From Desulfosudaceae bacterium (GTDB lineage: Bacteria; Desulfobacterota; Desulfobacteria; Desulfobacterales; Desulfosudaceae), in contig CAXXDV010000003.1 in NCBI GenBank assembly GCA_963674745.2, positions 2,048,001-2,112,000 of the forward strand: a stretch of 64,000 nucleotides of DNA, in the 5' to 3' direction. Positions 2,024-31,842 of this stretch are shown one piece after another (positions within the stretch are counted from its first letter, which is position 1; the number at the start of each line of letters is the position of its first letter). The notes under the pieces were generated by a model, which was given only the letters and a program-made list of their open reading frames with translations, searched no databases and was not told where the DNA came from. The position numbers and the translations under genes are program-made.

Positions 2024-2035
2024 GGTAAACTCCTG

Positions 2036-7443: not shown

Positions 7444-7453
7444 AATATACCTC

Positions 7454-9401: not shown

Positions 9402-9457
9402 AAAAATAATACTTTTAAAACAAATACTTAAGATTTATGCTTGTTTTTATCTATTAA

Positions 9458-9499
9458 ATATAGTAGGCTGAACCGAAAAATAGCGCAGGCCTACTATAT
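9458..9499. promoter_or_regulatory. Inverted repeat, candidate activator binding site (UAS)
   Basis: Perfect 11-bp inverted repeat ATATAGTAGGC-N20-GCCTACTATAT upstream of the sigma-54 promoter. Confidence 0.55.
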
Positions 9500-9550
9500 A
9501 AGGTAGCTGTGGATATTTTATAAAACAACCGGGAAAGGCACTCACAAAAT

Positions 9551-11614: not shown

Positions 11615-11625
11615 GATAACATGTT

Positions 11626-13574: not shown

Positions 13575-13589
13575 TGGCACGATCCATGC
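13575..13589 (+). promoter_or_regulatory. Sigma-54 (-24/-12) promoter of the hdr operon
   Basis: TGGCACGATCCATGC with GG-N10-GC spacing, 18 nt before the ATG at 13608 and divergent from a sigma-54 activator. Confidence 0.8.
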
Positions 13590-13607
13590 GTATACAAAAA
13601 GTCCATT

Positions 13608-14045
13608 ATGGAGAACTCACCAAACATACTGATCCTTTCCGAGGCCATGGAGCTTCGATTTTTTCTTGAGACAGTGCTGACAGAAGCGCATTACCGTACG
13701 ACCAGCGCAGTAAATATGGAGGAAGCACTGGAGCAGGTTGTCCGGGACACGCCGGCAATGGTTCTCATTGATGTGATGTCCAGCAAGCAGGGAATCTCCA
13801 TGTACAGGCAGCTCCGGCGACATGAAAAATATAAATTTATCCCGGTGATCATGCTTTCCTCGTTGGCAAGGGAAGCTTTTTTTCAGCTGCACAACATTGA
13901 ATACAGTCTTCCGAAAAAAGGGTTGCCCAAACCCGACGACTACCTGCCCAAACCCCCGGAAGCAGAAGAACTGATAGACGCGATTAAAAAAATATTCAAG
14001 GACAAGTCAACCCCTGGCAACAAAGGAAAAAGAACATGCAATTGA
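13608..14045 (+). CDS. Stand-alone response regulator receiver protein (atypical acidic pocket)
   Basis: REC pattern ILILSE...VLIDVM...PVIMLSS...YLPKP; no output domain. Confidence 0.8.
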   Translation: MENSPNILILSEAMELRFFLETVLTEAHYRTTSAVNMEEALEQVVRDTPAMVLIDVMSSKQGISMYRQLRRHEKYKFIPVIMLSSLAREAFFQLHNIEYSLPKKGLPKPDDYLPKPPEAEELIDAIKKIFKDKSTPGNKGKRTCN

Positions 14046-17000
14046 AGATCGGCTGTTATATCTGTCATTGCGGCATTAACATTGCCCATCGGGTGGATGT
14101 GGTGGAGGTGGCGAGGTTTGCAGGCACACTGGAAGGCGTTGTCATTGCCAGAGACTATAAATTCATGTGCTCTGATCCCGGCCAGGAAATGATCGAGGCA
14201 GATATTCATGAATTCGGACTGAACCGTGTAGTGGTGGCGTCCTGCTCTCCCAGACTCCATGAAAAAACCTTCCAGAGTGCTTGCAAGCGGGCCGGCATCA
14301 ACCCTTATCTTTTCCAGATGGCATCAATCCGGGAACAGGTTTCATGGGTGACGCTGGACGATGAAGAAGCGACGCGCAAAGCGAAAACCCTGGTTGCCGG
14401 TGCGGTCAACCGGGTCAAGGCCCATAACAGTCTTGAAACCCGGCATGTCAATGTCCATCCGGACATCATGGTCGTCGGCGGGGGCATTGCCGGCATGCAG
14501 GCGGCCCTGGATATCGGCAACAGCGGACATACCACCTACCTGGTGGAAAAATCCACGACCATCGGCGGCCACATGCTTCAATTCGATAAAACATTTCCAA
14601 CCCTGGACTGTGCGGCCTGCATCGGTACGCCGAAAATGGTGGAAGTGGCCCAGAATGCAAATATCGAGCTGCTTTCCTATTCGGAAGTAACCGGCGTTTC
14701 CGGCTACATCGGCAATTATGAGGTAACCATCCGGAGACGGCCACGGTATATCAAAGAAGATCTGTGCACCGGATGCGGAGAATGTACAAAAGCCTGTCCG
14801 GTCAGCTTTCCAAGTGAATGGGACGAATGCCTCCAGGACCGGAAAGCCATTTACAGGGCGTTTCCGCAGGCAGTCCCCATTACGTACTGTATCGACAAAC
14901 TTGATCCGGCTCCCTGCGTGCAGACCTGCCCGGCCCATGCGAATGTCCAGGGGTATATCCAGCTCATAAAAAAAGGTGAATACGAAAAAGCGGTCCGCCT
15001 GATCATGGAACGGATTCCATTACCCGGTGTTCTGGGGCGGGTCTGCCCGCATCCCTGTGAATCAGCCTGTCGCAGGGGCGATCTGGACACACCTCTTGCC
15101 ATCCGGGATTTGAAACGGTTCGCCGCAGACCAGGTGGACATGGAAACACTGGCAGTCCCTGAAATATCAGAACTGGGCAGAAAAATCGCTGTGATCGGCT
15201 CCGGGCCGGCCGGTTTGACAGCCGCCTATGATCTGCGGTTGAAAGGCTATGATGTTACCATTTTTGAAGCAGCCGGTCTTCCCGGCGGCATGCTGCGCAG
15301 CGGCATACCCGATTACCGCCTGCCGCAGGAAATACTGGATAAAGAGATCGGTTATATCCAGCGAATGGGCATTCGGATTGAAACCGGAAAAGCCCTGGGA
15401 AAACACGTCTTGACAGAACAGCTGAAATCTGACGGATTCGAGGCGGTTTTTCTCGGGATCGGTGCTCAGGGCGGCATGGCTCTGGATATTCAAGGTGAAA
15501 ACAGTCCCGGTGTAACAGATGCGATTCATTTTCTCCGGCAGGTCAGTCTCGGGAGCAGAGAGACGCCTGGCCGTATGGTAGCCATAATCGGTGGCGGTAA
15601 TGTGGCTGTTGATGCCGCCCGGACAGCCATTCGCCTGGGCGCGGAAGAAGTCATTCTGGCTTATCGTCGAACACGGGAGGAAATGCCGGCTTATGAGGAC
15701 GAAATCGAAGGCGCCCTGGCAGAGGGCGTGATATTGAGGCCGCTGGTGACACCTCTTGAGATCATTAAAAAAGACGGTCGCTGTGCGGGAATCCGGTGTG
15801 TGGAAAACCGCCTTGGTGACCCGGATGAAAGCGGCCGAAGGCGGCCGGAGCCTGTTGAAGGATCAGAATTCATACTGGCCTGTGACAGTGTAATCACTGC
15901 CATCGGTCAGGCCATTCTGCTGCCTGAAGATGCCACATTAAAAGAAATCGGTTTTGACCGCCGCAACCGCATCCGGGTCAATCCTGATACGCTCCAAACC
16001 GACATTGAATGGCTTTTTGCAGGCGGAGACATGGTCAGCGGACCCGCAACCGTTGTAGGAGCAGTATCCGGAGGACACCGGGCTGCCCATGCCATCCATC
16101 ATTATCTCTCAGGAAAGGATATGACGGAACTGCAGGGCTTCTTTGAATCTACAAAATCGATTGAAGAGAGTAACTATAAAGAGATACCGGCAAATGCAGC
16201 AATCTTAGAGCGGCAGGAATTAACCCACAGGGATGCCGGAAAACGGAAACACGATTTCAATGAAGAAACTGTCGGGTTTGATGCCGAGGGGGCAAAAGCC
16301 GAAGCTGAGCGTTGCCTGAACTGTCAGGGATGTTGTGAATGTATGGAATGTGTCCGGGCCTGTGAAGCAAAGGCCATTGATCATCTTATGAAACCTGAAG
16401 AAAAGACAGTCAAAGTCGGTTCCATTATCCTGACCACAGGCTATGATGTTCTGGACCCCACTGCCATGAAGCAATTTGGTTACGGCACTTTCCCCAATGT
16501 CTATACCAGTCTTGAATTTGAACGCCTTTCCAATGCCACCGGACCCACGGGCGGAGAAATCCTGATCCGGGACGACACCGGCGCTTTTGCCAGGGAGCCT
16601 AAAAGTGTGGCGCTACTGCACTGTATCGGCAGTCGGGATGCGAACTACCATGAATACTGTTCCCGTGTCTGCTGCATGTATGCGTTAAAATATTCCCACC
16701 TGATAAAGGAAAAAGTCGGGCATGACGCGGAGGTGTATGATTTTTACATTGATATGCGTTGCTTCGGAAAGGGATATGAAGAATTTTACCGCCGGTGCCA
16801 GGAAGAAGGCACCCATTTTATCCGCGGCAAGGCATCAGAAATTACGGACCAGGCGGAATCACCGGAAGAGGAAGGAAAGCTTGTGGTGATCGGTGAAGAT
16901 ACGCTTCTCTCCAGCCTGGTCCGCATTCCTGTGGATATGGTGGTGCTCTGTGTGGCCATGCAGGCCAGGGATGATGCCAGAGATGTCGGTCGAATTTTTG

Positions 17001-17455
17001 GTGTAAACCAGGGTTCGGACGGTTTTTTCCTTGAAGAACATCCCAAGCTGGGTCCGTTGAACACAGCGACGGACGGCGTTTTTATCGCCGGCGCCTGCCA
17101 GTCGCCGAAAGATGTCCCGGATACGGTGGCCCAGGCCTCTGGCGCCGCTGCAAAAGCCCTGTCGCTGGCATCCAGGGGCCAGGTCCAGGTATCATCAACC
17201 ATCTCCTGGATTGATCCGGATATCTGTGCCGGTTGTCAGATCTGCAGGCCTTTATGCCCGTATTCCGCTATTGAATTTGACGAACGCCGCAGGGTGTCCG
17301 TCGTCAATGAAGCCATCTGTAAAGGCTGTGGTTCATGCGCCGGGGCATGCCCGTCGGGCGCAGCCCAGGTCCGGCATTTTACGAAAAAACAAATGTTTTT
17401 AGAGTTTGAAGGTATTATGGCTGCCCTGAATAAGGTCCAGGCGCCGGCACAATAA
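14036..17455 (+). CDS. hdrA: HdrA-family flavoprotein with an inserted GltD-like NAD(P)/FAD domain (HdrL type)
   Basis: HdrA motifs ICHCG, VVASCSPRLHE, GGGIAG, DKTFPTLDC, CIGSRD...YCSRVCCMYA and C-terminal ferredoxin. Insert carries APCVQTCP, GRVCPHPCE, GSGPAG, GGGNVAVD, AGGD. Confidence 0.92.
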   Translation: MQLKIGCYICHCGINIAHRVDVVEVARFAGTLEGVVIARDYKFMCSDPGQEMIEADIHEFGLNRVVVASCSPRLHEKTFQSACKRAGINPYLFQMASIREQVSWVTLDDEEATRKAKTLVAGAVNRVKAHNSLETRHVNVHPDIMVVGGGIAGMQAALDIGNSGHTTYLVEKSTTIGGHMLQFDKTFPTLDCAACIGTPKMVEVAQNANIELLSYSEVTGVSGYIGNYEVTIRRRPRYIKEDLCTGCGECTKACPVSFPSEWDECLQDRKAIYRAFPQAVPITYCIDKLDPAPCVQTCPAHANVQGYIQLIKKGEYEKAVRLIMERIPLPGVLGRVCPHPCESACRRGDLDTPLAIRDLKRFAADQVDMETLAVPEISELGRKIAVIGSGPAGLTAAYDLRLKGYDVTIFEAAGLPGGMLRSGIPDYRLPQEILDKEIGYIQRMGIRIETGKALGKHVLTEQLKSDGFEAVFLGIGAQGGMALDIQGENSPGVTDAIHFLRQVSLGSRETPGRMVAIIGGGNVAVDAARTAIRLGAEEVILAYRRTREEMPAYEDEIEGALAEGVILRPLVTPLEIIKKDGRCAGIRCVENRLGDPDESGRRRPEPVEGSEFILACDSVITAIGQAILLPEDATLKEIGFDRRNRIRVNPDTLQTDIEWLFAGGDMVSGPATVVGAVSGGHRAAHAIHHYLSGKDMTELQGFFESTKSIEESNYKEIPANAAILERQELTHRDAGKRKHDFNEETVGFDAEGAKAEAERCLNCQGCCECMECVRACEAKAIDHLMKPEEKTVKVGSIILTTGYDVLDPTAMKQFGYGTFPNVYTSLEFERLSNATGPTGGEILIRDDTGAFAREPKSVALLHCIGSRDANYHEYCSRVCCMYALKYSHLIKEKVGHDAEVYDFYIDMRCFGKGYEEFYRRCQEEGTHFIRGKASEITDQAESPEEEGKLVVIGEDTLLSSLVRIPVDMVVLCVAMQARDDARDVGRIFGVNQGSDGFFLEEHPKLGPLNTATDGVFIAGACQSPKDVPDTVAQASGAAAKALSLASRGQVQVSSTISWIDPDICAGCQICRPLCPYSAIEFDERRRVSVVNEAICKGCGSCAGACPSGAAQVRHFTKKQMFLEFEGIMAALNKVQAPAQ

Positions 17456-17481
17456 CTTTTTGAGACAAGAGAGGACGTTTT

Positions 17482-17904
17482 ATGAGTGAATTCAATCCCC
17501 TGATTATCGCTTTTGTCTGCAACTGGTGTACCTATACAGCTGCAGATCTGGCCGGTACATCCCGCCTGAATTATCCGGACAACATCCGACTGATGCGTGT
17601 GATGTGTACCGGCATGGTGGACCCACAATATGTCATTAAGGCTTTTCTGGAAGGCGCGGACATGGTTTTGGTCAGTGGTTGCCATCCGGGCGATTGCCAC
17701 TATATCAACGGCAATTACAAGGCACGGCGCCGGATAAAACTGCTTCAGGAGATCCTGCCCGTGCTCGGTATTGAAAAAGAACGACTGAAACTGACCTGGA
17801 TCGGGGCCAGTGACGGCATCCAATTCGCACGTACCATGGAAGAACTGGTGGTTCAGGCAAAAAATCTGGGGCCCGGCCCGGGACGGCAGCAAATTGCCGT
17901 CTGA
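17482..17904 (+). CDS. mvhD: MvhD/FlpD-family [2Fe-2S] protein
   Basis: FVCNWCTYTAADLAG, RVMCTG, GCHPGDCHY motifs. Confidence 0.95.
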   Translation: MSEFNPLIIAFVCNWCTYTAADLAGTSRLNYPDNIRLMRVMCTGMVDPQYVIKAFLEGADMVLVSGCHPGDCHYINGNYKARRRIKLLQEILPVLGIEKERLKLTWIGASDGIQFARTMEELVVQAKNLGPGPGRQQIAV

Positions 17905-17919
17905 TCAGGAGGAAAACAA

Positions 17920-19059
17920 ATGGCATTGACAACCCGTATTACAGTTGAAAATAAAGATTTTCTGGCGGCTGCAAGGCATTTTTTGATCGATGTACTGAAT
18001 TCTGACAGTATTGATGCGATAGTGGTTCCGCTGGTTTCGGAAGGCGGCCATTCCATCATGCCGGAACTGGTAACGGTTCCTTCCCGGCTGGAACAGGCGG
18101 ATCCTTTGAGCCCTTGTTTCCCGATGAATTCTGCACGTCTGATTTCAAGGCTGACCCGCAAACCAGGGAACAGAAAAATTGCGGCCGTACTCAGGCCGTG
18201 TGAAATCCGGGCACTGGTAGAACTGGTTAAACTCAAACAGGCCCGACTGGACGACCTGATCGTGATCAGTATGGACTGCCTGGGGGCCTATTCCAACAAA
18301 GACTGGACCCTCATCAGCGCATCCGGGCCGGATAATTTTACCCGGACTTTTTATGAAAAACAACTTTCCGGCAGGCTTTCGGAGGAAGGCGAACCGGAAA
18401 TAACTTCAGCCTGCAGGGCCTGTGAATATCCGGTATCTGACCAGGCAGACATCACCTTTGATTTCCTGGGTACAGAGATTACCCGGGAATTTCATATTAC
18501 AGGAAAAAGCGATGCCGGAGAGGCCCTGATCCGTGACCTGGGTTTTGAAACATCAGAACTGCCAAAAGACAGGGGGGCCCGGATAGCGGATCTCACTGCC
18601 AGGCGCCTGGCATTCCGGGATGACATGTTTGCCAGAACCCGTGAGGCGGTTGCGCCCCTGGACAAGCTGTCTGTTTATTTTGAACGATGCGTGAACTGCT
18701 ATAACTGCCGGGTGGCCTGTCCGGTCTGCTATTGCAGAGAGTGTGTTTTCAACACGGACGTGTTTGACCACGATCCGTTTCAGTACATGGAAAAAGCCCA
18801 TCGCAGCGGCAGTCTCCGTCTGCCTTCGGACACGCTCTTTTTCCACATCACCCGGATGGCGCACATGAGCCTGTCCTGTGTGGGCTGCGGACAGTGTTCC
18901 AATGCCTGCCCCAATGACATCCCGGTGATGGAGGTTTTTCGTCTGGCAGCATCCGCAGCCCAGGACGGTTTTGGCTATATCCCGGGGATAAAAAAAGATG
19001 ACGCCCCGCCCCTGTCGGAATTTAAGGAAAACGAATTTGAAGAGGTTGTCGGCATTTAA
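17920..19059 (+). CDS. FrhB/FdhB-family Fe-S (flavo)protein
   Basis: VLRPCEIRALVEL, DCLG, ACRACEYP, CVNCYNCRVACPVCYCRECVF, CVGCGQCSNACP. Confidence 0.85.
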   Translation: MALTTRITVENKDFLAAARHFLIDVLNSDSIDAIVVPLVSEGGHSIMPELVTVPSRLEQADPLSPCFPMNSARLISRLTRKPGNRKIAAVLRPCEIRALVELVKLKQARLDDLIVISMDCLGAYSNKDWTLISASGPDNFTRTFYEKQLSGRLSEEGEPEITSACRACEYPVSDQADITFDFLGTEITREFHITGKSDAGEALIRDLGFETSELPKDRGARIADLTARRLAFRDDMFARTREAVAPLDKLSVYFERCVNCYNCRVACPVCYCRECVFNTDVFDHDPFQYMEKAHRSGSLRLPSDTLFFHITRMAHMSLSCVGCGQCSNACPNDIPVMEVFRLAASAAQDGFGYIPGIKKDDAPPLSEFKENEFEEVVGI

Positions 19060-19082
19060 CAAAATGATAAAAGGAAAAAAAC

Positions 19083-22000
19083 ATGAAGCCTGATCCCATG
19101 GATAATGAGCACAGCAACGCCCTGGTCGTCGGCGCAGGAATTTCCGGTATCCGCACTGCTCTGGATCTGGCCCAGCAGGGATACAGGGTGACGTTGATCG
19201 ACAGTAATCCGGCAACAGGCGGTCTGCTTAACCAGCTGGATTATCAGTTTCCCACTAATCACTGCGGCATGTGCAGGCTGCTGCCCCTGGTTCACCGGGA
19301 CCAGTCTTCCCAGCACTGCCTGCGCAAAGGTATTTTTCACGAAAACATCGACCTGCACTTATCCTGTGAGCTGCAGGATCTGTCCGGTGAGCCGGGAAAT
19401 TTTACGGCCCGGATAAAAGAAAAGCCGACCTGGGTGGATCCTGATCGATGCGTGGGATGTGGCCTTTGTGAACAGGTCTGCCCGGAAGAAATCCCGGACT
19501 GTTTCAACGAGGGGCTTTCCCGTAGAAAGGCGATTCATTTGCCCGTTCCCCATGCCATTCCAAATGCGTATGTTGTGGACCTGGCATTTTGCAGTCGTTG
19601 CGGCGCCTGTGAAGCGGTCTGTCCCACTGATGCGATTCAGCTGTCGGATGTCAACCGGAAGGCTTTTTCCATTCTGGTGGTGGATGATGAACTGAGCATC
19701 CGGGATTCCCTCAAAGAATGGCTGGAAGAAGAAGGTTTCAGCGTCGACATGGCCGATTCGGGCAAGGCGGCGCTTTCCGCGCTGGAAGAAAAAGAGTATC
19801 GTCTTATGCTGACCGACATCAAGATGCCGGAAATGGACGGCGTCGAGCTCTTGGCAAAGGCAAAAGAACTCCAGTCCGAGCTGAACGTGGTCATGATGAC
19901 AGCCTATGCTACCGTTGAGACGGCCATCGAAACCATGAAAACCGGCGCCCGGGATTACCTGATCAAACCGTTTGACCCGGAGACCCTGATACCCATGGTG
20001 GTCCGTATTTTTCAGGATGTCGAAGCATCAAAAGACCGGGTATTGTCAGTGGATACAGTTATCTTTGCCTGCGGTACCACTTTCTACAATCCCGCGGATA
20101 ACAAAAATGTTTATGGTTACGGGATTTATCCCAATGTACTCACCCACATCGAGTTTGAACGTATGCTCAGTCCGGCCGGCCCGAGTCCGGAAGGACTGCT
20201 GCGACGGGACAACAACAAGCCTGTAAAAAAAATTGCCTGGATTCAATGTGTCGGCTCAAGGGACATACAGAACGGGGCTGATTACTGCTCAGGCATCTGC
20301 TGTATGATTGCGGTAAAGGAGGCCATGCTGGCCAGACAGATGTCAGGCGGTCAAATTGAACCCGTTATTTTTTATATGGATATGCGGGCCTGGGGCAAGC
20401 CTTTTCAGTCTTATCTTGACGAAGCTGCGGAATCGGATCAAATCCGATTTGTCCGCTGCAAAGTTCACTCTTTAAGCGAGGATTCCGAGACCCGAGACCT
20501 TGTGCTGCGTTACATGGACCGGCCAGGACACGCCGTCTTTGAAAACTTTGATATGGTCGTTCTTTCCACAGGAATGCGGCCCGGTCCGGATATGGCGCGG
20601 CTGGCGGAAATCACAGGTGTCGGACTGAATCCCTGGGGATTTTTTGATCACCTTCCGTTTGAGCCTGCCAGGACCGGCCAGGACGGCATTTTTGTCTCCG
20701 GTTCCACCACGGAACTCCGGGACATCAGCGAGTCGATGATCACGGCCTCTGCTGCTGCTGCCAATGCTTCCGGAATTATCCGGAAGCAAGATGCCGGGCA
20801 AAAAATGCCGGCACTTCCCGTCTTACCTGAAAAGGATACAAGCCGGGAGCCCGTGCGGATTCTTCCGGTGATCTGCACCTGCAACGGACGCCTGGAGGCA
20901 GCGGTGACAAAAAAAGATATCGAGCAGGTTTTTGATTTCGACCCGGACCTTGACGATCCCGTTTTTATTGACCGGCTCTGCATGGCCCAGGGATGGCAGG
21001 AAATGAAAGACCACCTGGCAGACAGTGCCTGCAACCGGATGTTGATCGCCGCATGCCATCCTTATGTGTTTACGCCCGGAATCCGGAGGCTGAGGGATGA
21101 TCCCGGGGTTGATCCGGCCATGGTTCATGCCGTGGATACCATGACCCCTCTTTTCTCAACAAAACCGGAGAAAGCAGAAGAAAAAACATTACATTTATCC
21201 CGGATCGCCGCTGGCCTGCGCCAGGGAGCGGCCTTTCTGAAGCATGCCGAGCCCGCATCTCGCACTGAAACAGCCATGTGTCAGCGGGTACTGGTGATCG
21301 GGGGGGGGATCGCCGGCATGACGGCCGCCCTGGCTATTGCCGGTCAGGGCTTTGAGGTGGACCTGGTAGAAAAAGAAGAACAGTTTGGCGGCAATCTGAA
21401 CTGGCTTTCTTCCACCCTTGAGGGGCATGACGTCAAGGCCCTTCTCGAGGACACACTGTCCCGTCTAGGCAAAGCACCCGCCCTTTCACTTTATCCCGGT
21501 GCCCGGTTGGTGAATGTAACCGGAACCGCCGGTCATTTCCGGACGGTCCTCGAAGACGACCAGCAAAAAGGGGTGTCCCTGACACACGGCGCCGTCATCA
21601 TTGCCACCGGCGGCCGGGAATCAGATACCTGCGCCTTTTTGCATGGTGAAAATGACCGGGTGATCACCCAGAAAGCGCTGGAGGGAAAACTGTCTGAGGA
21701 AGGGGCCGATATTCCGGGTACAGTCGTGATGATTTTATGCGTTGACTCCAGGGTTCCGTCTGCGAACTACTGTTCCCAGGTCTGCTGCCCGACAGCGATA
21801 AAACAGGCGAGAGAAATCAAACGGCGCAGCCCGGACACAGAAATTTTTATTTTCTACCGGGATATGATGACCTGCGGTTTTTCAGAGACTTATTTCACCC
21901 ATGCCAGAAATGAAGGCATTATTTTCATCCCCTATTCACTGGACAAGCTTCCGGAAGTAAAAGCCATAGAGGACGGTATTCAGGTCTGCGGGAACGATCC

Positions 22001-22532
22001 CATCCTGGATCAGTCTCTTGAAATTTCAGCCGATCTTCTAATCCTTGCCACTGGAATTACACCGGAGTTGCCTGAAGATCTTGCAGAGATGCTTGGTATC
22101 GTCCGTGATAAAAACGGTTTTTTTAATGAAGCGGACCCCAAATGGCGTCCTTTGGACAGTCTCACCGAAGGCATTTTTGCCTGCGGTATTGTCCAGGCAC
22201 CCCGATCAGTGGAAAAGAGCATTGGAACGGCTCAGGCCGCAGCGCAGCGGGCCATGAGCATTATCAGCCAGCCCCGTTACCGGATGGACAGGACCACAGC
22301 ATCCGTCCGGCATGCAATCTGCAGCCGCTGTGAAGCCTGCATCCCGGTTTGCCCTTACAACGCACGAACACTGAACACAGAAGAAGACAGGATTCAGGTC
22401 AATGCATTGGCCTGCCAGGGATGCGGGGCCTGTGCAGCAGCCTGTCCCAATGGAGCGGCTATCCTTGAAGGCTTTTCCAGCCGTCAGATGCTGGATGGTA
22501 TTGACGCAGTCTTTTATCCGCTGCCGAATTAA
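19083..22532 (+). CDS. hdrA: Tandem (two FAD-domain) HdrA-family protein with an internal response-regulator receiver domain
   Basis: GAGISG...DYQFPTNHCGMC, ferredoxin motifs, REC domain at ~19665-20020, CVGSRD...CSGICC, second GGGIAG module and C-terminal 2x[4Fe-4S]. Confidence 0.92.
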   Translation: MKPDPMDNEHSNALVVGAGISGIRTALDLAQQGYRVTLIDSNPATGGLLNQLDYQFPTNHCGMCRLLPLVHRDQSSQHCLRKGIFHENIDLHLSCELQDLSGEPGNFTARIKEKPTWVDPDRCVGCGLCEQVCPEEIPDCFNEGLSRRKAIHLPVPHAIPNAYVVDLAFCSRCGACEAVCPTDAIQLSDVNRKAFSILVVDDELSIRDSLKEWLEEEGFSVDMADSGKAALSALEEKEYRLMLTDIKMPEMDGVELLAKAKELQSELNVVMMTAYATVETAIETMKTGARDYLIKPFDPETLIPMVVRIFQDVEASKDRVLSVDTVIFACGTTFYNPADNKNVYGYGIYPNVLTHIEFERMLSPAGPSPEGLLRRDNNKPVKKIAWIQCVGSRDIQNGADYCSGICCMIAVKEAMLARQMSGGQIEPVIFYMDMRAWGKPFQSYLDEAAESDQIRFVRCKVHSLSEDSETRDLVLRYMDRPGHAVFENFDMVVLSTGMRPGPDMARLAEITGVGLNPWGFFDHLPFEPARTGQDGIFVSGSTTELRDISESMITASAAAANASGIIRKQDAGQKMPALPVLPEKDTSREPVRILPVICTCNGRLEAAVTKKDIEQVFDFDPDLDDPVFIDRLCMAQGWQEMKDHLADSACNRMLIAACHPYVFTPGIRRLRDDPGVDPAMVHAVDTMTPLFSTKPEKAEEKTLHLSRIAAGLRQGAAFLKHAEPASRTETAMCQRVLVIGGGIAGMTAALAIAGQGFEVDLVEKEEQFGGNLNWLSSTLEGHDVKALLEDTLSRLGKAPALSLYPGARLVNVTGTAGHFRTVLEDDQQKGVSLTHGAVIIATGGRESDTCAFLHGENDRVITQKALEGKLSEEGADIPGTVVMILCVDSRVPSANYCSQVCCPTAIKQAREIKRRSPDTEIFIFYRDMMTCGFSETYFTHARNEGIIFIPYSLDKLPEVKAIEDGIQVCGNDPILDQSLEISADLLILATGITPELPEDLAEMLGIVRDKNGFFNEADPKWRPLDSLTEGIFACGIVQAPRSVEKSIGTAQAAAQRAMSIISQPRYRMDRTTASVRHAICSRCEACIPVCPYNARTLNTEEDRIQVNALACQGCGACAAACPNGAAILEGFSSRQMLDGIDAVFYPLPN

Positions 22533-22562
22533 GAATCAAAAAAAGTGCCACGGAGCATGACT

Positions 22563-23141
22563 ATGAAAAAAAAAGAAAATATCGTCCCGGAACGAGCAAA
22601 ACATCTTTTGGCAGCTGTGAGGGAAATGGTTCAGCCCTGCATCCAGTGCGGAACCTGTACCGGTTCATGCCCCAACGCTTTTGCCATGACACATACACCC
22701 AGAGCGCTGTGGCACATGGTGATAGAAGGTCAGGACGCTGAAGTATTGTCCAGCAAGACCTTTATTCTCTGCTCCTCCTGTTACTCATGCACCCTCCGCT
22801 GCCCCCGAGGGCTGCCGTTGACAAATGCCATGTCCCTGCTGACCCAGGCGGCCAGAGATGAAAATCAGCCCTGGTTTGTCAAAAGCCAGGCTTTTTATAC
22901 GGCATTTCTGGACAGTGTCCGCCGTCGAAAGCGCGTAAATGAGACTGAATTTATGTCTCTCTTCTTCTGGAAAATGAAAAATCCGATCCTTTCTCTGCAA
23001 TTTGCTTCCCTGGGCCTGAAACTGATGAAGAAACGCAAAATCAGTCTTCCGGTGTTTTTCCCGGGACAGGAAACAGGGCTTGAAAAAATTTTTGAAAAAA
23101 CCCGGCAGGTGGAAGCCGGACAAATGGAGAAAAAGGCATGA
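22563..23141 (+). CDS. hdrC: Heterodisulfide reductase subunit C-like Fe-S protein
   Basis: CIQCGTCTGSCP and CSSCYSCTLRCPRG. Start uncertain (22545/22557/22563); GGAG precedes 22563. Confidence 0.9.
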   Translation: MKKKENIVPERAKHLLAAVREMVQPCIQCGTCTGSCPNAFAMTHTPRALWHMVIEGQDAEVLSSKTFILCSSCYSCTLRCPRGLPLTNAMSLLTQAARDENQPWFVKSQAFYTAFLDSVRRRKRVNETEFMSLFFWKMKNPILSLQFASLGLKLMKKRKISLPVFFPGQETGLEKIFEKTRQVEAGQMEKKA

Positions 23142-24055
23142 AATATCTTTATTATCCCGGATGTTCCCTGGAGGGTACGGCTCTGGAATACAACCGCTCG
23201 ACCTGTTCCCTCATGGCGGCCCTGGGAGTGGAACTGGTGGAGATTGATGACTGGTCCTGCTGCGGGGCCAGTGCGGCCACAACGATATCTGAACTGCTTT
23301 CCCTTGTACTACCGGCCCGAAATCTGGCGCTGGCAGAAAGGATGTGCGAAGAAACCGGTGAAAAGCTGGATATTTTAGTACCCTGTTCGGCCTGCTATCT
23401 AAATTTAAAAAAAGTATCTGAACAGGCAGCGGCAAACCCTGCGTTGCTGGATCAGCTGAACTCGATTCTGGCAGAAGATGGACTGAAACTCGAGAATCAC
23501 TTGAATGTCCGTCACCTGCTCGATGTGCTCAGCAAAGACTTAGATCCGGACCATCTGGCCGCAAGCGTCATATCTCCGCTGTTCGGGGTATCAGCCGCAC
23601 CATATTACGGGTGTCAGTGCCTGAGGCCCTACCCTGTTTTTGATGATCCGGAGAAACCCGAATCAATGGATGCCCTGATCCGGGCCTGTGGTGCAACGCC
23701 CTATGCCTGGGCCATGGGAGGGGTCTGCTGCGGCGCATCACATATGAATACAAAACCGGAAGTCGGAAAAACGTTGGTTGGACGTATCCTGAGCCGGGCC
23801 GGAAATGCCGACGTCATCCTGACGGTCTGTCCAATGTGCCAGATGAACCTTGAAGGATATCAGAAAAAAACCGGCCATGCCTGTCATAAGGAATTCAATA
23901 CCACGATTCTGTATCTTCCACAATTTATCGGAATCGCGCTGGGCCTCTCAGAAGAACAGGTCCGCACGGATTTAAACCTTTCAATCACAGCCGATTTCAA
24001 AAAAAAGATAGAAAATTTGACACGCACGTCCTTAACTCAGGCGTCTTCAGGATAG
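23138..24055 (+). CDS. hdrB: Heterodisulfide reductase subunit B
   Basis: YYPGCSL, DWSCCGA, PCSACY, PYYGCQ, CCGASH, CPMCQMNLE (two CCG domains). Confidence 0.93.
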   Translation: MKYLYYPGCSLEGTALEYNRSTCSLMAALGVELVEIDDWSCCGASAATTISELLSLVLPARNLALAERMCEETGEKLDILVPCSACYLNLKKVSEQAAANPALLDQLNSILAEDGLKLENHLNVRHLLDVLSKDLDPDHLAASVISPLFGVSAAPYYGCQCLRPYPVFDDPEKPESMDALIRACGATPYAWAMGGVCCGASHMNTKPEVGKTLVGRILSRAGNADVILTVCPMCQMNLEGYQKKTGHACHKEFNTTILYLPQFIGIALGLSEEQVRTDLNLSITADFKKKIENLTRTSLTQASSG

Positions 24056-24078
24056 TCCAACAATATAAGGAGGGTATT

Positions 24079-25392
24079 ATGTTTAAAAAAATTCTTTTGG
24101 CGACTACGCCGGCAGACGAGTCAAAAGGGGCGGCAGATCTTGCTTTTGCCATGGCAAGGCCGAGCAGTTCAAAGCTTTACATCTTTCATGCCTATGGGCT
24201 TCCGGATCAGGGATGGGGCAACATGCGTTATCTTTTGCCGTCCGGCAAGGTAGACGAGGCCGAAAAAGAACTGGAAGCTTATTTTAAAGCAGACCTGGAA
24301 GCTGTGGAAAATTATGAAGTCAAAGTTGTTCCGGGCGTTCCTGAAATTGAGATTCTCAGGTATGCCAGAAAGCATAATGTGGATGTGATTGTCATGGGCC
24401 CGCACCGGGTGGAACAGAATCAGCCGCGTATCTGGGGAATGACGGGTTCCACCATACAGAAAGTCAGCCTCAAGGCCCGGTGTCCGGTGATGATCGTCCC
24501 ACCGGATATGCCGGAAATTTTTCGTCCGGAAGAAGTCCATCTTTCAAAGGAAGACCGTCTAAGTTACAATGTCCTTGTTGTCGACGACGAACTTTCAATG
24601 CGTGATTCTTTAAAAGAATGGCTGACCGAAGAAGGGTTTACCGCTGATATGGCGGAATCCGGGGAGCAGGCACTTGAAATGCTGTCTAAAAAAACATATC
24701 AGCTCATGCTGACAGACATCAAGATGCCGGGTATGGACGGGGTTACACTGCTGGAAAAGGCAAAGCAGTATTATCCCCGGCTTGCCGTGGTCATGATGAC
24801 GGCCTATGCCACCATTGATACTGCCCTGCGCGCGACAAAAAAAGGGGCACTGGATTACCTGGTCAAACCCTTTGATCCGGAACAGCTGATTCCGAAACTC
24901 CGGCAGTTTCATCAGGATTACGAACTCACCCGCGGACGGTTTAAAATTGCTTTTTCAAACATTGTTCTTGCAACAGACTTCAGCAAACCGGCATTTTGTG
25001 CATTTAATTTTGCATTGGATATCGCGCAGGTATATGACGCAACCCTGCATATTTTTCATGTCCTGCCGGATACTGATCATGAAAAAATTCTGCCCCAGGC
25101 TGAAGTAGAACGAAACATCCAGGAAGCCCTGTCAAAAATGGAACAGCGCTATGGCCCTGATCTTTCTGCAGTTGTTGATTATTCAATGGATTCCTGGGAA
25201 GGCGTTCCTCATGCAGAAATTTTGAAATTTGCCAGATGGAAATATGCCGATCTCATCATAATGGCCCATCATTCCAGGGAGCGGGATCCGGAAAGCGCTG
25301 TTCTTGGCTCCACAGTGATTAAAGTTGCCTCCAGTGCCCGGTGCCCGGTACTGAGCATTAACAGGGATTTCATTCCTCGCTGCTGTGCCTGA
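24079..25392 (+). CDS. USP-REC-USP protein (tandem universal stress protein with inserted receiver domain)
   Basis: USP1 MFKKILLAT...GSTIQKV...CPVMIV; REC VLVVDDE...TDIKMPGMDG...MTAY...KPF; USP2 NIVLATDFS...LGSTVIKV...CPVLSI. Confidence 0.92.
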   Translation: MFKKILLATTPADESKGAADLAFAMARPSSSKLYIFHAYGLPDQGWGNMRYLLPSGKVDEAEKELEAYFKADLEAVENYEVKVVPGVPEIEILRYARKHNVDVIVMGPHRVEQNQPRIWGMTGSTIQKVSLKARCPVMIVPPDMPEIFRPEEVHLSKEDRLSYNVLVVDDELSMRDSLKEWLTEEGFTADMAESGEQALEMLSKKTYQLMLTDIKMPGMDGVTLLEKAKQYYPRLAVVMMTAYATIDTALRATKKGALDYLVKPFDPEQLIPKLRQFHQDYELTRGRFKIAFSNIVLATDFSKPAFCAFNFALDIAQVYDATLHIFHVLPDTDHEKILPQAEVERNIQEALSKMEQRYGPDLSAVVDYSMDSWEGVPHAEILKFARWKYADLIIMAHHSRERDPESAVLGSTVIKVASSARCPVLSINRDFIPRCCA

Positions 25393-25403
25393 TAACGGAG
25401 TTC

Positions 25404-26957
25404 ATGATGAATGAAGATAAAACGGAATGGAAAATCGTATTAATCGATGATGAACCCGATATCAGGGAGGTGATCCAGATCGTCCTGACGGACTGGGGAT
25501 ATACTGTTTTTACGGCTGATAACGGGTTGTCCGGCCTGGCATTGTGCCGGAAAATCTCTCCCCAGGTGGTGATCACCGATGTAAAAATGCCTGGTATGGG
25601 AGGTCTCCAGGTACTGGCACGCCTGAAAGAAGTGCAACCAAGAATTGAAGTCATCGTGATGACGGCTTTCGGGGATATCGAAACCGCCATCGAGGCGATT
25701 CAGCTGAATGCATCTGATTTTATCACAAAGCCGGTCAATGACCAGGCATTGGAACTGGCCATTGATCGGGCGAAACAGCGATATACATCGGCCAGGCAGA
25801 TCAGGGAACACGCAAAGATGCTGGAAAACGGCTGGATGCAGGCCAACCGTGAGCTTGAGAAAAACTACCACTTCCAGGATAAAATTATCAATAATTCCAT
25901 CAGTGGGATTATTGCCAGCGGTCCGGATGGCCTGATTAAACTTTTTAATGCCAGTGCCGAAAAGATGACCGGCTTCAAAGCAGCTGAAATCCTGGGGACA
26001 AAAAAACTGGCTTCCCTTTTCGACGAAAACGATTTCAACGAGATCGAACTGGCTCTGGCTGATAATGGTCACGGTGGACCGAACCGGATCGATCTTATGG
26101 AATCAATGATCAAGGACGATAATGGTACACATATCCCTGTTCAGATTTCAGCCAGCCTTTTGTTCGACAACCAGAAACATGAAGGTACGCTGATCTGCCT
26201 GCGGGATCTCAGGGAATTGCGCCGGATCGAAAGGGAAATGGCGGACCAGGAGAAAATCCTGCACCAGGACAAAATGATGTCTCTTGGAAGACTGGCCGCG
26301 TCTGTGGTTCATGAAATCAACAACCCCCTGTCCGGAATTTTGAATTATCTGCGGCTTATGGAAAAAATGACCCGGAAGCCCCTGGATGAAACAAAACTTG
26401 AAAAATTTTCCGGGTACCTGGAAATTGCGTCCAAAGAAACGGCCCGCTGTTCTTCTATCATTTCAAATCTTCTGATTTTTTCCAGAAAATCATCAATCAG
26501 TTATGAAGCCGTGAACGTGACAGATCTTCTGGAGCGGACGGCTCTGCTCATCCGCCACAAACTCGAACTGTCCAACGTATCCCTCTTACTCGAGCGTCCC
26601 GCCGACATTCCTGACTTAAAAGCGGATGCCAACCAGATTCAGCAATGTCTGATCAATCTTATTTTTAATGCCCTGGATGCAACACCGGAAGGGGGCACCA
26701 TCACCATCAGTGCGGATCACCCTTCAGGTACCAACCAAATCAATATATCCATCGCCGACTCCGGCAGCGGCATCCCTGAAAAAGACCTGCCATATATTTT
26801 TGATCCTTTTTTTACAACCAAAAAAGAAGGCCATGGTGTCGGGCTGGGGCTTTCAACCGTTTACGGCATCATGGAACGCCATGGCGGGGCCGTCCGGGTA
26901 GCAGAGACCGGTCCTTCCGGCACCCGCTTTATTTTGGAATTCAACTCCCTGGCTTAA
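25404..26957 (+). CDS. Cytoplasmic hybrid histidine kinase (REC-PAS-HisKA-HATPase)
   Basis: IDDE...TDVKMPG receiver; PAS (FNASAEKMTG); H-box VVHEINNPL; N, G1, F, G2 boxes. Confidence 0.93.
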   Translation: MMNEDKTEWKIVLIDDEPDIREVIQIVLTDWGYTVFTADNGLSGLALCRKISPQVVITDVKMPGMGGLQVLARLKEVQPRIEVIVMTAFGDIETAIEAIQLNASDFITKPVNDQALELAIDRAKQRYTSARQIREHAKMLENGWMQANRELEKNYHFQDKIINNSISGIIASGPDGLIKLFNASAEKMTGFKAAEILGTKKLASLFDENDFNEIELALADNGHGGPNRIDLMESMIKDDNGTHIPVQISASLLFDNQKHEGTLICLRDLRELRRIEREMADQEKILHQDKMMSLGRLAASVVHEINNPLSGILNYLRLMEKMTRKPLDETKLEKFSGYLEIASKETARCSSIISNLLIFSRKSSISYEAVNVTDLLERTALLIRHKLELSNVSLLLERPADIPDLKADANQIQQCLINLIFNALDATPEGGTITISADHPSGTNQINISIADSGSGIPEKDLPYIFDPFFTTKKEGHGVGLGLSTVYGIMERHGGAVRVAETGPSGTRFILEFNSLA

Positions 26958-26972
26958 AAAAAGACAAGGTAC

Positions 26973-28775
26973 GTGGTTTCTCTCAGCAATTTTAAAAAAA
27001 GCATTGCCTGTAAATTGATCCTCGCAGCAGGGCTGACGGTCCTGATAACAGTTTTTATCGGCGCGCTCCTCTTCATCCAATATGAAGAAACAAAGACGCT
27101 GATTTCTTTTGCCGTATTCATTTTTTTGATCTGTTCTTCAATTATTGCGATTTTCGTCATGCGTTTTGTGAACCGCCCGATTAAACAATTAATCTGGGAA
27201 ACCCGCCGGATTAATCAGAAGGCCCATGGCCGGATAGAAGGCTTCCGGGGCGGAGAGATCAAGCAGCTTGCAGAAGCGATCAATGAGATGGCTGAACAAA
27301 TGGATCTCAAGCAGAAAATATTGAATGAACAGCGCCAGGAATATCAGAATCTGTTTGAGGCAGTGCCCTGTCTGATTACAGTTCAGAACCGAAATTTTGA
27401 ACTTCTGCAGTACAACCGAAAATTCAAGGAACGCTTCCATCCAGATAAAGGGGCGCTTTGCTACCAGGCATATAAGAACCGCTCCAGTCCATGCCAGAAT
27501 TGTCCTATGGTTGAAACGTTCAAAGACGGTAAATCCCACCATGGTGAACAAAGCAGCATGACCCGGTCCGGGAAAACTTCCTACTGGACGTTGCGAACAG
27601 CCCCGATCAAGGACGCCGACGGCAACGTCACCGCTGTGATGGAAATATCCGTCGATATCACAAAAATGCGTCTGCTGGAAAATGAAGTCCGGAGATCTGA
27701 AGAAAAATACAGGGCCATTTTTGATAATACACCTAATCCACTGTTTGTTTTGGAAAGAGAAACACTGAAAATTCTGGACTGCAATGCAAGTGCGCATCAG
27801 ATATACGCGTATACGAAAAAAGAGATGCTTTCCCTGCAATTCGGAGATTTTTTTGACCCTGAATTTGAGCCGGAAGCCACGGCAGCTATCCGGGCATGTA
27901 GAACGCTCACAAGGGTCCGTCATCTTGGTAAAAACGGAAAAATTATTTTTGTCGACATCAGTGTTGCACCATCACAATACCAGGCATCCCGGGTGCTCCT
28001 GGCCAATGCCACCGATGTGACGGAACGGCTAACGGCAGAACAGCAGCTGATTCAGACCAGCAAAATGGCAACCCTCGGAGAGATGGCAACGGGTATTGCC
28101 CATGAATTGAACCAGCCCCTCACCGTGATCAAGACCGCGGCCGGCTTCATTCTGCGCAAAGCCCAGAAAAAGGAACCTATTGACGACGAAATCATGTCCA
28201 CCATGGCTGAAAAGATTGACGGACAGGTGAACCGGGCATCTAAAATCATCAATCACATGCGAGAATTCGGTCGAAAATCTGATGTGGTCAAAAAAACAGC
28301 CGATGTCAACCGGGCTCTGAACAATGCGTTTGATATTTTCCGTCAGCAGCTGAAACTGCACCAGATCGATGTGATCCGGCGCCTGACGCCTGATCTGCCT
28401 TTGGTTTTGGCTGATGAAAACCGTCTGGAACAGGTTTTTATCAATATCCTGATCAATGCCAGAGATGCCATTGATTCAAAATCTGTATTGGAAGAGGAGC
28501 AAGCCGATTCCATGGAATTAAAGCAGATCTACCTGACCACAAAAAGATCAGGCGGCGGGGTGGTTGTTGAAATAGAAGATACAGGCACCGGCATTCCAGA
28601 AGCGATTACAAACAAAATCTTTGACCCTTTTTTCACGACAAAACAGGCCGGTAAGGGAACCGGTCTCGGCTTGTCCATCTCTTATGGTATCATCAAGGAT
28701 TATGATGGACATATAAGCGTTCAAAAGGGAAAGTTCAACGGCGCATTATTCATCATCAAGCTTCCCTGCGCATGA
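26973..28775 (+). CDS. Membrane histidine kinase (2 TM-HAMP-PAS-PAS-HisKA-HATPase)
   Basis: Two adjacent hydrophobic helices, HAMP, PAS with CY...PCQNCP, IAHELNQPL, DPFFTTK, GTGLGLS. Confidence 0.92.
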   Translation: MVSLSNFKKSIACKLILAAGLTVLITVFIGALLFIQYEETKTLISFAVFIFLICSSIIAIFVMRFVNRPIKQLIWETRRINQKAHGRIEGFRGGEIKQLAEAINEMAEQMDLKQKILNEQRQEYQNLFEAVPCLITVQNRNFELLQYNRKFKERFHPDKGALCYQAYKNRSSPCQNCPMVETFKDGKSHHGEQSSMTRSGKTSYWTLRTAPIKDADGNVTAVMEISVDITKMRLLENEVRRSEEKYRAIFDNTPNPLFVLERETLKILDCNASAHQIYAYTKKEMLSLQFGDFFDPEFEPEATAAIRACRTLTRVRHLGKNGKIIFVDISVAPSQYQASRVLLANATDVTERLTAEQQLIQTSKMATLGEMATGIAHELNQPLTVIKTAAGFILRKAQKKEPIDDEIMSTMAEKIDGQVNRASKIINHMREFGRKSDVVKKTADVNRALNNAFDIFRQQLKLHQIDVIRRLTPDLPLVLADENRLEQVFINILINARDAIDSKSVLEEEQADSMELKQIYLTTKRSGGGVVVEIEDTGTGIPEAITNKIFDPFFTTKQAGKGTGLGLSISYGIIKDYDGHISVQKGKFNGALFIIKLPCA

Positions 28776-29181: not shown

Positions 29182-31842
29182 ATGGGCCTTAATGTCTTAC
29201 TTTTTTTATCTGTTTTTTTTATGATATGTTTCCTTGTGTTTGCCGTATCTTTTAGAATCATTAATTCTAAAAATAAGATTTATTACGCCACCATAATTTC
29301 TGCCTTTAGTTTGTATACCATCATGTATTTAGTTTCAGACAATTTTACAGGAAAAGGTATCGATGAGTCTGTTATATACCATCTCATTTCTGGCTTGAAA
29401 GGTACCGGATTTGCGGAATACCTTAAACTAATATCCTACACATCTGCTGCCATTATACTTTCCTTATTTCTTCCTTTTGTGTTTATTGACAAAGTGATCA
29501 GACATTCTAGTACGTTGCAAAAAACAGCCTTTAAAAAAAAAGCATCCGTTGTTTTGTTAGTCATGATGAGTTTTGTTTTCAGCCCAACGTCCAAAGGGCT
29601 TTATGAAATTAATTCTCACAAAATCAGATTTCAAAAACAATCAGGATTACCTTTTAATCAATTCTATAAAAAACCCAGAATTAAAAAGGCACCTTCTTCA
29701 CCCCCGAATCTTGTGTATATTTATACAGAGGGCTTAGAAAGAACATATTTTGACAATTCTGTATTCCCTGATCTTATGACGGGGCTGAGTGAAATTGAAA
29801 AGGGAGGAATTGTTTTTGATGATATACAGCAGGTTTACGCTACTGGATGGACTATTGCGGGAATTGTATCATCCCAGTGCGGCATCCCCTTAATATGCCC
29901 TTCAACGGGGAACTCAATGGGGAATATGAATCAATTTATGCCAAATGCAGTCAGCATGAGTGACTTGCTATCACAATATGGCTATCATCTTGAATTTCTC
30001 CAGGGAACATCCGGATCATTTGCAGGTAACGGAAATTTTCTCAGAACGCATTCTTTCGACAAAGTTTATGACAAAGATGAATTATTAGGCCGTATAAACA
30101 ACCCGCCCCAAAACAGTTGGGGGCTTTATGATTCATCGGTTTTTAACTTTGCAATGAAACGATATCAATATCTTTCGTCTCAGTCAAAACCATTTGGCCT
30201 GTTTATCAGCACTATGGACACTCACCACCCAAAGGGGCACCTGCCTAAAACATGCGACAAAATTTATGGTAATGGTAAAAACCCTATTCTTAATGCTGTA
30301 AAATGTTCAGACCAACTCATCAGTTTTTTTGTTCAAGAAATATTATCCTCATATAATTCAGATAACACTGTAATTGTAATAGCTTCTGACCACCTGGCAA
30401 TGAAGAATACTGCAACAGACTTGCTTGATTCTATCAAACGCTCAAACTTATTGATGGTTATTTCTCCAACACACAAGCCTAAAACAATTTACAAAAAAGG
30501 AACAACAATGGACATTGCGCCTACTGTTCTTTATGTAATGGGATTCAATGCAGACGTCGGGCTTGGAAGGAACTTAATGGTTGAAGATTCCCTTTTACAA
30601 GAAATACCAGATTTTAACAGTCAGCTCAAATTGTGGCAGGATGATATAATTCGTTTTTGGGGTTTTCCTGTAATAAATAATAATGATTTTCTTAAAATAA
30701 ATATTCTTAGAAAAACAATAAGCTTCAAAGAAAAGGAAATTCAATTTCCGATCTTAATGGAATTCGACAAGGGTCACAACACAACCATTAAATTCCCACA
30801 TCTTAGAGGCAGTTTATATCCAGAAATTGAAGGGTACGATGGTTTCCAATCTCTTGAACACTTTCCTCAATATTTTTTACTGATTGATAAATGTCAGCAC
30901 CCAAAAGCTCAATTTTGCATGACGTATGGCTTGAAAAATTCTAATAAAAATATATCCATGCCATTAACAGAGGACATCGAATTTACTGCTGATTATATCT
31001 TCACATTAACAAGACTCAAGTTTAAGCAAAATTCAACTAATGCTGACATCATAAAAAAACGAATTACTCCGGACCGAATTATCGCTCATGCAGGAGGGGC
31101 AATTGATGGTCATGTTTACACAAATTGCCTAGAAGCGTTAGATCTGAATTACAGTAAGGGGTTTAGAAAATTTGAACTTGATATTTTAAAAACTTCAGAT
31201 GGCCATTTAGTTGCAGCTCATGATTGGAAACTTTGGAAAGAAATTACAAATTATCAGGGGGCATTGCCTCCTGACCGCTGCGACTTTCTATCTTCAAAAA
31301 TATTAGGTCAATATACACCATTAGATATAAAAAGGATTAATCTATGGTTTCAAAACCACCCTGATGCTTCCCTGGTAACAGATAAAATTAATGCCCCCAT
31401 GTATTTTGCCAGTAGATTTATAGACAAATCCCGTTTAACAATGGAGTTGTTTTCCACAGAAGCATTATGTCAAGCTAAAAAAAGCGGTGTTTCCAGCATG
31501 GCGAACTGGAGTGTTTTAGGTAAATTGTCTGATGAAAGAATACATTATCTTAAAAGTGTAGGGGTTTCCGATGTGGCTGTTTCAAGACGTATGATCAAGA
31601 CACATGCCGAACAGATGCAAAAGCTCCGAGACAACGGGATCAGGGTTTTTGTGTATCACGTCAACGCAGATCCTGGCAGGAATGAACAGTTTGTAATATG
31701 TAACGATATGGATATTGTATATGGCATGTATGCTGACGAATTGAATTTTAACGATATGGTTTATTGTGAAAAAGCTAAATACCAGGATGATGCTGTAATG
31801 GGGCTGCGGGCCAGATATCTCTACCCGCCGAACTGCCGATGA
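29182..31842 (+). CDS. Phosphoglycerol transferase I (OpgB/LTA-synthase family) fused to a C-terminal GDPD-like domain
   Basis: N-terminal TM helices; YTEGLERTYFD, GWTIAGIVSSQCGIP, TMDTHHP, ASDHLAM; C-terminal RIIAHAGG...TNCLEAL...FELD. Visibly AT-rich. Confidence 0.8.
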   Translation: MGLNVLLFLSVFFMICFLVFAVSFRIINSKNKIYYATIISAFSLYTIMYLVSDNFTGKGIDESVIYHLISGLKGTGFAEYLKLISYTSAAIILSLFLPFVFIDKVIRHSSTLQKTAFKKKASVVLLVMMSFVFSPTSKGLYEINSHKIRFQKQSGLPFNQFYKKPRIKKAPSSPPNLVYIYTEGLERTYFDNSVFPDLMTGLSEIEKGGIVFDDIQQVYATGWTIAGIVSSQCGIPLICPSTGNSMGNMNQFMPNAVSMSDLLSQYGYHLEFLQGTSGSFAGNGNFLRTHSFDKVYDKDELLGRINNPPQNSWGLYDSSVFNFAMKRYQYLSSQSKPFGLFISTMDTHHPKGHLPKTCDKIYGNGKNPILNAVKCSDQLISFFVQEILSSYNSDNTVIVIASDHLAMKNTATDLLDSIKRSNLLMVISPTHKPKTIYKKGTTMDIAPTVLYVMGFNADVGLGRNLMVEDSLLQEIPDFNSQLKLWQDDIIRFWGFPVINNNDFLKINILRKTISFKEKEIQFPILMEFDKGHNTTIKFPHLRGSLYPEIEGYDGFQSLEHFPQYFLLIDKCQHPKAQFCMTYGLKNSNKNISMPLTEDIEFTADYIFTLTRLKFKQNSTNADIIKKRITPDRIIAHAGGAIDGHVYTNCLEALDLNYSKGFRKFELDILKTSDGHLVAAHDWKLWKEITNYQGALPPDRCDFLSSKILGQYTPLDIKRINLWFQNHPDASLVTDKINAPMYFASRFIDKSRLTMELFSTEALCQAKKSGVSSMANWSVLGKLSDERIHYLKSVGVSDVAVSRRMIKTHAEQMQKLRDNGIRVFVYHVNADPGRNEQFVICNDMDIVYGMYADELNFNDMVYCEKAKYQDDAVMGLRARYLYPPNCR

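Follow-up and report, generated by a model that had tools for sequence, protein, structure and literature searches.

Why does a universal stress protein (USP) carry, between its two USP domains, a receiver domain (REC) that closely resembles the one inside an HdrA-like flavoprotein of the same gene run? The question is raised by a locus in the window analysed here (the whole stretch of 64,000 nucleotides from a Desulfosudaceae bacterium). The usual output of two-component systems is transcription, and the function of USPs is a long-standing open question. The explanation that we favour, to which as a whole we assign a probability of roughly 60%, is that a receiver, likely copied from hdrA, was inserted into a tandem USP and would be phosphorylated together with HdrA by the neighbouring hybrid kinase HK1, probably once HK1 has received a phosphoryl group on its own REC from HK2, a second kinase of the same run.

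The gene run and the USP-REC-USP protein

All genes of the run lie on the forward strand and encode, in this order, a single REC, an HdrA-like protein with a GltD-like insert, MvhD, an FrhB-like 4Fe-4S subunit, HdrA-REC, HdrC, HdrB, USP-REC-USP, HK1 and HK2. At its head stands the single-domain REC gene with a sigma54-like site (13575-14045; the site itself at 13575-13589). Such sites occur across the window at chance level (4 against 4.8 expected), as do the hits of the promoter and terminator scans, and only the position of this one is suggestive. The region 14036-19059 encodes the HdrA-like protein with the GltD-like insert (presumably HdrL), MvhD/FlpD and the 4Fe-4S FrhB-like subunit (which we take to be Flx-like), in a gene order shared with most hdrA-REC loci. 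The tandem HdrA-like flavoprotein (19083-22532; 1149 aa) has its receiver inserted behind the ferredoxin arm (19665-20018, aa 195-312, with phospho-acceptor D245 at 19815-19817). The hdrC-like and hdrB-like genes follow (22545-24055) and lie directly upstream of the usp gene, separated from it by a gap of 23 nt; the NCBIfam models of HdrA, HdrB and HdrC match the hdr genes of the window below their cut-offs. Next to the usp gene come HK1 (25404-26957), a hybrid kinase with the architecture REC-PAS-HisKA-HATPase, and HK2 (26973-28775), a TM-HAMP-PAS-PAS-HisKA-HATPase kinase. The latter is short (600 aa, against 750-870 aa in its relatives) and seemingly has two adjacent hydrophobic stretches and no periplasmic domain.

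The protein under study (24079-25392) is a 437-aa open reading frame that reads, by Pfam, as a tandem universal stress protein with an intact receiver inserted. A first-pass annotation of the sequence had placed a REC with phospho-acceptor D213 between two USP domains. Pfam agrees: Usp matches in two stretches and Response_reg at aa 165-274, above cut-off, with D213 (codon 24715-24717) at the acceptor position. Domain 1 (24079-24504, aa 1-142) lacks the beta1 Asp and has the second Gly of the ATP motif substituted. It is followed by a linker (24517-24564, aa 147-162), the receiver (24565-24918, aa 163-280) and domain 2 (24952-25353, aa 292-425), in which the beta1 Asp300 is invariant and A-H-H-S replaces G-x-x-G. 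Judged by its residues, the inserted domain is a receiver of the response-regulator type, with an acidic pair (D169, D170), the phospho-Asp (D213), the Thr/Ser (T241) and the Lys (K263); these five positions as well as W181 are kept in 74/74 full-length relatives.

The ATP-binding class of USPs (MJ0577 type) is described, in the available text of PMC3673472, by the beta1 Asp and the motif G-2x-G-9x-G(S/T). Both domains fall outside this class with degenerate motifs; even domain 2, which has Asp300, shows A-H-H-S and a 10-residue spacer. The same departures are seen in tandem-USP relatives that lack a receiver, and according to the same available text ATP may be bound despite some degeneracy of the motif. 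A structure model (pLDDT 80.7, pTM 0.67, from a 41-sequence alignment) has the tandem USPs 3ab8 and 3cis as its best fold matches in Foldseek, and the two USP folds of the chain are predicted to pack as a pseudo-dimer, in the manner of tandem USPs. Like TTHA0350 (PDB 3ab8), Rv2623 (3cis), AF1760 (3loq) and UspE, the protein thus has two USP domains per chain, and the target-normalised TM score against the three structures is 0.70-0.75. It differs from these proteins in the 130-aa receiver in the linker, in the degenerate ATP motifs of both domains and in an identity of only 12-16%. No solved USP-REC fusion is present among the structure matches listed.

Relationship between the two receivers

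The likeness that drew attention to the locus holds on recounting: the USP receiver (aa 165-272, nt 24571-24894) is identical to that of HdrA at 75/108 positions in a gapless alignment. BLASTP widens the match to 87/157 over residues 151-305, and at the DNA level 218/310 positions agree. We compared all 5050 pairs among the 101 RECs that a self-built HMM finds in the genome. The two receivers are 65% identical over 117 columns and form the 7th closest pair (mean 26%, 99th percentile 45%), the next best REC to either reaching 46%. The remaining five receivers of the window were said to be less similar and indeed lie at 24-35%. A quick phylogeny of the genome's RECs places the two as sisters (SH-aLRT 100), and with a profile of the HdrA-type REC they reach 216 and 209 bits, whereas no other REC of the genome exceeds 135. 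In a wider quick tree the USP and HdrA receivers group together (65 rows, support 91). On this sequence evidence, the USP receiver belongs to the clade of HdrA-type inserted RECs, apart from all other RECs.

The expression 'near twin', used in the first-pass annotation, is apt within the genome and less so across HdrA receivers in general: by identity to the USP receiver, the neighbouring HdrA receiver ranks only 21st of 108. Given this rank, together with third codon positions that are identical at only 56/117 and a longest identical run of 16 nt, the USP receiver must be an old copy. The same rank and codon divergence rule out that the receiver was duplicated recently, or homogenised by gene conversion, within this genome.

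The likeness is unevenly spread over the domain. We take the kinase-facing residues to be S173, M174, S177, E180 and W181 of alpha1 and P264, F265 and D266 of the beta5-alpha5 loop, mapped via OmpR and RR468 numbering. The near-invariance of alpha1 and the shared loop reported at first are borne out, with 11/13 and 5/5 identical residues in the window pair. Taken together, the kinase face is identical at 16/18 positions and the dimer face at 10/24; alpha2-alpha5 agree at about half of their positions, and alpha4 and alpha5 (5/12 each) are the least conserved helices. None of the other 99 RECs of the genome has the Trp of alpha1 and none agrees with the alpha1 signature at more than 3/5 positions. 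The available text of PMC2991266 names alpha1 and the beta5-alpha5 loop as determinants of phosphotransfer specificity.

Origin of the inserted receiver

It had been proposed that one REC was duplicated into two unrelated host proteins. The common origin and the sister relationship stand; the remainder can be refined, as the copy appears to have gone from hdrA to usp, once, and a third host also exists. The tree of receivers has 85 rows, which were left from 221 RECs after filtering by identity. In this quick tree the USP receivers fall inside the HdrA clade, at weak resolution: neither the monophyly of HdrA RECs to the exclusion of those of USP (p-AU 0.28) nor, in the wide tree, the sisterhood of the window pair (p-AU 0.10) is rejected. 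More telling is the sequence in front of the receiver. In 32 group-1 fusion proteins the 16 N-flanking residues match the end of the HdrA ferredoxin arm (Cys-Pro-Thr-x-Ala-Ile) without gaps, the cysteine being lost, and 0/500 column shuffles reach the score, likewise when the four REC-adjacent residues are left out. The linker of the window protein is in the same register and is likely a remnant of the donor gene. For the group-2 flank (40 proteins, four residues shorter), 209/500 shuffles reach the score once the last four residues are removed. Since the flank motif is native to HdrA, we consider HdrA the likely donor.

A tree of the USP scaffolds with the receiver stripped off unites 28 REC-bearing proteins and the REC-less P0076 in a single clade (96) set among 38 tandem USPs that lack a receiver. 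The likelihood improves over that of the free search when the 17 USP receivers of the REC tree are forced together. The simplest reading of these alignments would be one insertion and one likely loss; two independent insertions are not favoured, given the single scaffold clade and the better likelihood with the USP receivers together. P0076 itself, a tandem USP nested in group 1, retains the last residues of the receiver's C-terminal helix and likely represents a clean secondary loss of the REC.

The gene neighbourhoods suggest where this happened. REC-less tandem-USP relatives have hmcF in front of them and a stand-alone REC behind. The present genome has such a cluster as well (L216:4062-18347, G000 C1), with the order hmcABCEF, REC-less tandem USP, single REC, REC protein and tmcDCB. 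Group-2 fusions come after tmcDCBA and a kinase, and in 6 loci they lie tail to tail with hdrB, an arrangement in which the receiver could plausibly have been captured. USP-REC-USP thus appears to have arisen once, in a tandem-USP family accompanying Hmc/Tmc redox complexes.

The third host is a hybrid histidine kinase with a REC of the same clade inside its HATPase domain (P0091, P0100 and P0270; for instance L031:9983-11521, forward strand). It comprises 3 clusters, and L031 has no hdr genes within 10 kb. A profile search for further hosts among representatives at 50% identity returned mostly multi-REC proteins, and after per-domain rescoring nothing exceeds 150 bits apart from HdrA fragments and two kinases, P0091 and P0100.

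Distribution of the fusion

Among the best 120 of 1787 matches there are at least 74 full-length USP-REC-USP clusters (50-92% identity), by which a one-strain accident is ruled out; a first look at 40 relatives had yielded no further full-length copy. The homologues carry source labels of Desulfobacteraceae or Desulfobacterales. Within this order of bacteria of the sulfate-reducer type the fusion is present in 13/401 genomes (this one included), scattered over several families, and in a phylum-wide sample of 400 other genomes, mostly from other orders, it was found in none. The HdrA-REC fusion is far more common (172/401 genomes of the order).

Co-occurrence of the two fusions had been suggested as a check, and here the expectation failed: intact HdrA-REC is present in 7/13 genomes with the USP fusion and in 165/388 without it (Fisher p 0.57), and counting the frameshifted copy of genome G282 (8/13, p 0.25) does not produce an enrichment either. 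When only genomes with HK1-type kinases are considered, HdrA-REC is if anything rarer with the USP fusion (7/13 against 157/186 without). The remaining genomes with the USP fusion have HdrA-REC in broken frames (G282) or none at all (5/13); three of the latter are 92-95% complete, and in two of these three the short contig with the fusion also bears hdrB or hdrCB. The broken copy (L203) is split over three frames and reflects either a sequencing error or a pseudogene. An obligate subunit of an Hdr-Flx complex would always accompany HdrA-REC, and the figures seen from either side are 7/13 and 7/172. At the level of loci, hdrB adjoins the USP fusion in 12/23 cases and in two different orientations, several other loci ending at the gene. 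The USP fusion is therefore often near hdr yet no obligate part of it, since half of the loci abut hdrB and only 7/13 genomes have an intact HdrA-REC.

The likely kinase

USP-REC-USP tracks the HK1-type kinase, not HdrA. HK1-type kinases were found in 199/401 genomes of the order: in 13/13 with the USP fusion, in 164/172 with HdrA-REC and in 35/229 without HdrA-REC, counts that are taken among kin and therefore inflated. In 18/23 USP-REC-USP loci the next gene encodes such a kinase, and within the genome HK1 is the sole carrier of its DHp motif among 36 kinases detected. In unrelated bacteria, sigma54 regulators that bear the Trp of alpha1 adjoin kinases with an HK1-like DHp in 10/12 cases against 2/91 for other regulators, although the motif was chosen with the data already in view and the count leaves out L196 (a cut USP-REC). 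A ranking by the HK1 core is free of this post-hoc choice and agrees with the pairing of HK1 and Trp-bearing receivers: 13 kinases beside Trp-bearing sigma54 regulators come right below the HK1 orthologues (168-207 bits), and others score at most 154.

As to HK2, all 27 receivers beside HK2-type kinases that belong to neither HdrA nor USP (largely one family) share the alpha1 signature of HK1's own REC. A clear HK2 orthologue is present in only 7/12 other genomes with USP-REC-USP. HK2-type kinases directly adjoin hdrA-REC in 8 loci (9 counting L041), which would fit HK2 as the kinase of HdrA. In most hdrA-REC loci, HK2 is followed by a REC-HisKA-HATPase protein of about 400 aa with an unusual H-box (for example L105:9528-10706, L019:15258-16439 and L041:10826-12052); the window has no such gene.

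Because of the co-occurrence and kinship of HK1, the signature of the HK2-adjacent receivers and the patchy presence of HK2, we predict a relay from HK2 to the REC of HK1 and from HK1 to D245 of HdrA and D213 of the USP protein. That HK1 serves both receivers is likely. For the step from HK2 to HK1 our confidence is lower, though we lean towards it. The earlier idea that one kinase co-regulates both proteins is retained as the likeliest reason why the kinase face stayed alike.

Proposed mechanism and alternative explanations

In the mechanism that we favour, HK2 would probably phosphorylate the N-terminal REC of HK1, and HK1 would then phosphorylate HdrA at D245 and the USP protein at D213. 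According to the predicted model the USP pair would stay folded together with the REC in its linker, and phosphorylation would switch the binding state of the USP: a response regulator with a USP pair as output. Such a role in its own right is suggested because genomes in which HdrA-REC was not found still keep the fusion and its kinase. As its target, the USP may have the redox machinery with which it has travelled (Tmc/Hmc ancestrally, Hdr-Flx here), a tentative assignment that follows from gene neighbourhood. The twin-like appearance of the receivers would then reflect shared ancestry and selection as substrates of the same kinase, rather than mutual binding.

Three other readings deserve consideration. 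The USP receiver might drain or buffer phosphoryl groups of HK1 and so set a threshold for HdrA, possibly gated by nucleotides at domain 2. It would profit from the similar kinase-facing residues, from the invariant Asp300 and from a co-transcribed arrangement in 6/23 loci, as well as from position 173, at which the two receivers of a genome agree (S/S in the window, L115, G271, G144 and G222; I or V/I in L017, L096, L099 and G370) even though S occurs there in only 3/108 HdrA receivers of a first sample. These matches represent two lineages, however, not nine events, and G052 is mismatched. Moreover, the 5/13 fusion genomes in which no HdrA-REC is seen (three of these are 92-95% complete) retain both the kinase and an intact REC, and at tmc-type loci the USP fusion is the only REC gene seen beside the kinase. 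As the fusion is kept without HdrA-REC, a sink is conceivable where both proteins occur and is not the general role of the family; on the whole we consider it improbable. An elaborate version, in which the relay from HK2 to HK1 phosphorylates a bifurcating HdrA and the USP protein, a nucleotide-gated USP competes and thereby ties the energy charge to HdrA~P, and one REC cassette sits inside three unrelated hosts (HdrA, the tandem USP and the ATPase domain of a kinase), every insertion placing a further protein under this class of kinase, seems to us comparably doubtful.

Still less probable is a division of labour, with HK2 serving the HdrA receiver and HK1 that of the USP, in which case the likeness would be inherited and have no joint function. 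Of the kinases within 10 kb of hdrA-REC, those of HK2 type are the most frequent, some lying immediately next to it, and the lack of enrichment of the two fusions at the genome level also fits. The other receivers beside HK2-type kinases nonetheless all carry a different alpha1 signature (that of HK1's own REC), G052 and G370 have both fusions without a clear HK2, and alpha1 of the pair has stayed identical at 11/13 positions while alpha2-alpha5 agree at about half. The least probable alternative, a heterodimer of the two receivers through the alpha4-beta5-alpha5 face that docks a nucleotide-sensing USP onto the Hdr complex, was raised at the outset and is now disfavoured. The adjacency to hdrB in two orientations and a family-wide alpha4 identity of 0.72 between the hosts speak for it. 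Against this, the conservation in the window pair lies on the kinase face and not on the dimer face, 165/172 HdrA-REC genomes lack the USP fusion and 5-6/13 fusion genomes lack HdrA-REC; the tail-to-tail adjacency is explained equally well as the setting in which the receiver was copied.

Comparison with known systems

Genes for USPs, response regulators and kinases beside hmc/tmc are described for Desulfococcus multivorans and Desulfovibrio vulgaris in the available part of PMC5109826. The setting is similar to that of the REC-less USP relatives in hmc-usp-rec-tmc clusters, including the one in the present genome. By this description, to which our comparison is confined, REC and USP are separate genes in those systems, whereas in the present protein the two are fused and the REC is a member of the HdrA clade. 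The closest outside kin of the twin receiver and of the HK1 core are NtrC-type kinase/sigma54-regulator pairs with the Trp of alpha1 (loci L040, L042-L046, L048, L049, L071, L076, L116, L117 and L031). They act through an AAA+ transcription activator, in place of which the present system would have a flavo-iron-sulfur enzyme and a pair of USP domains as outputs. E. coli, too, has a two-component pathway with a USP in it, in which UspC scaffolds with KdpD (available text of PMC2714519). In KdpD/UspC the USP belongs to or binds the kinase, whereas in USP-REC-USP the USP itself bears the phospho-acceptor.

A literature search, which covered mostly the main text of papers open without subscription, returned no description of USP-REC-USP or of a REC inside HdrA, and the available parts of PMC8401546, PMC3333781 and PMC10102598 do not mention USP-REC-USP. 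The parts are thus known, and the architecture and its wiring were not found in the literature searched. If the proposed mechanism is true, one kinase acts directly on a redox enzyme and a USP, and signalling is directed to proteins of energy metabolism, not to genes. It would provide a USP family with a built-in on/off switch (D213) and a named candidate kinase, making the output of a USP amenable to ordinary phosphotransfer and pull-down work. It would also name a likely kinase for the HdrA receiver, which is present in 172/401 genomes of the order. Finally, the family may illustrate how a pathway is wired by domain insertion, with a donor remnant, a single origin, one likely loss and a third host.

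Surroundings of the gene run

Among 12 genomes of the same family, two of them from the same genus, none has HdrA-REC, USP-REC-USP or an HK1-type kinase; the block 13608-28775 was probably either acquired or lost in its kin. Upstream of the hdr block (215-13383) lie genes for ETF alpha/beta, an FAD-linked oxidase and CCG-domain proteins, together with two sigma54 activators; the ETF, oxidase and CCG genes are a possible electron donor route. Downstream of HK2, the region 29182-31842 encodes a membrane protein of the sulfatase family, the C-terminal part of which is weakly GDPD-like.
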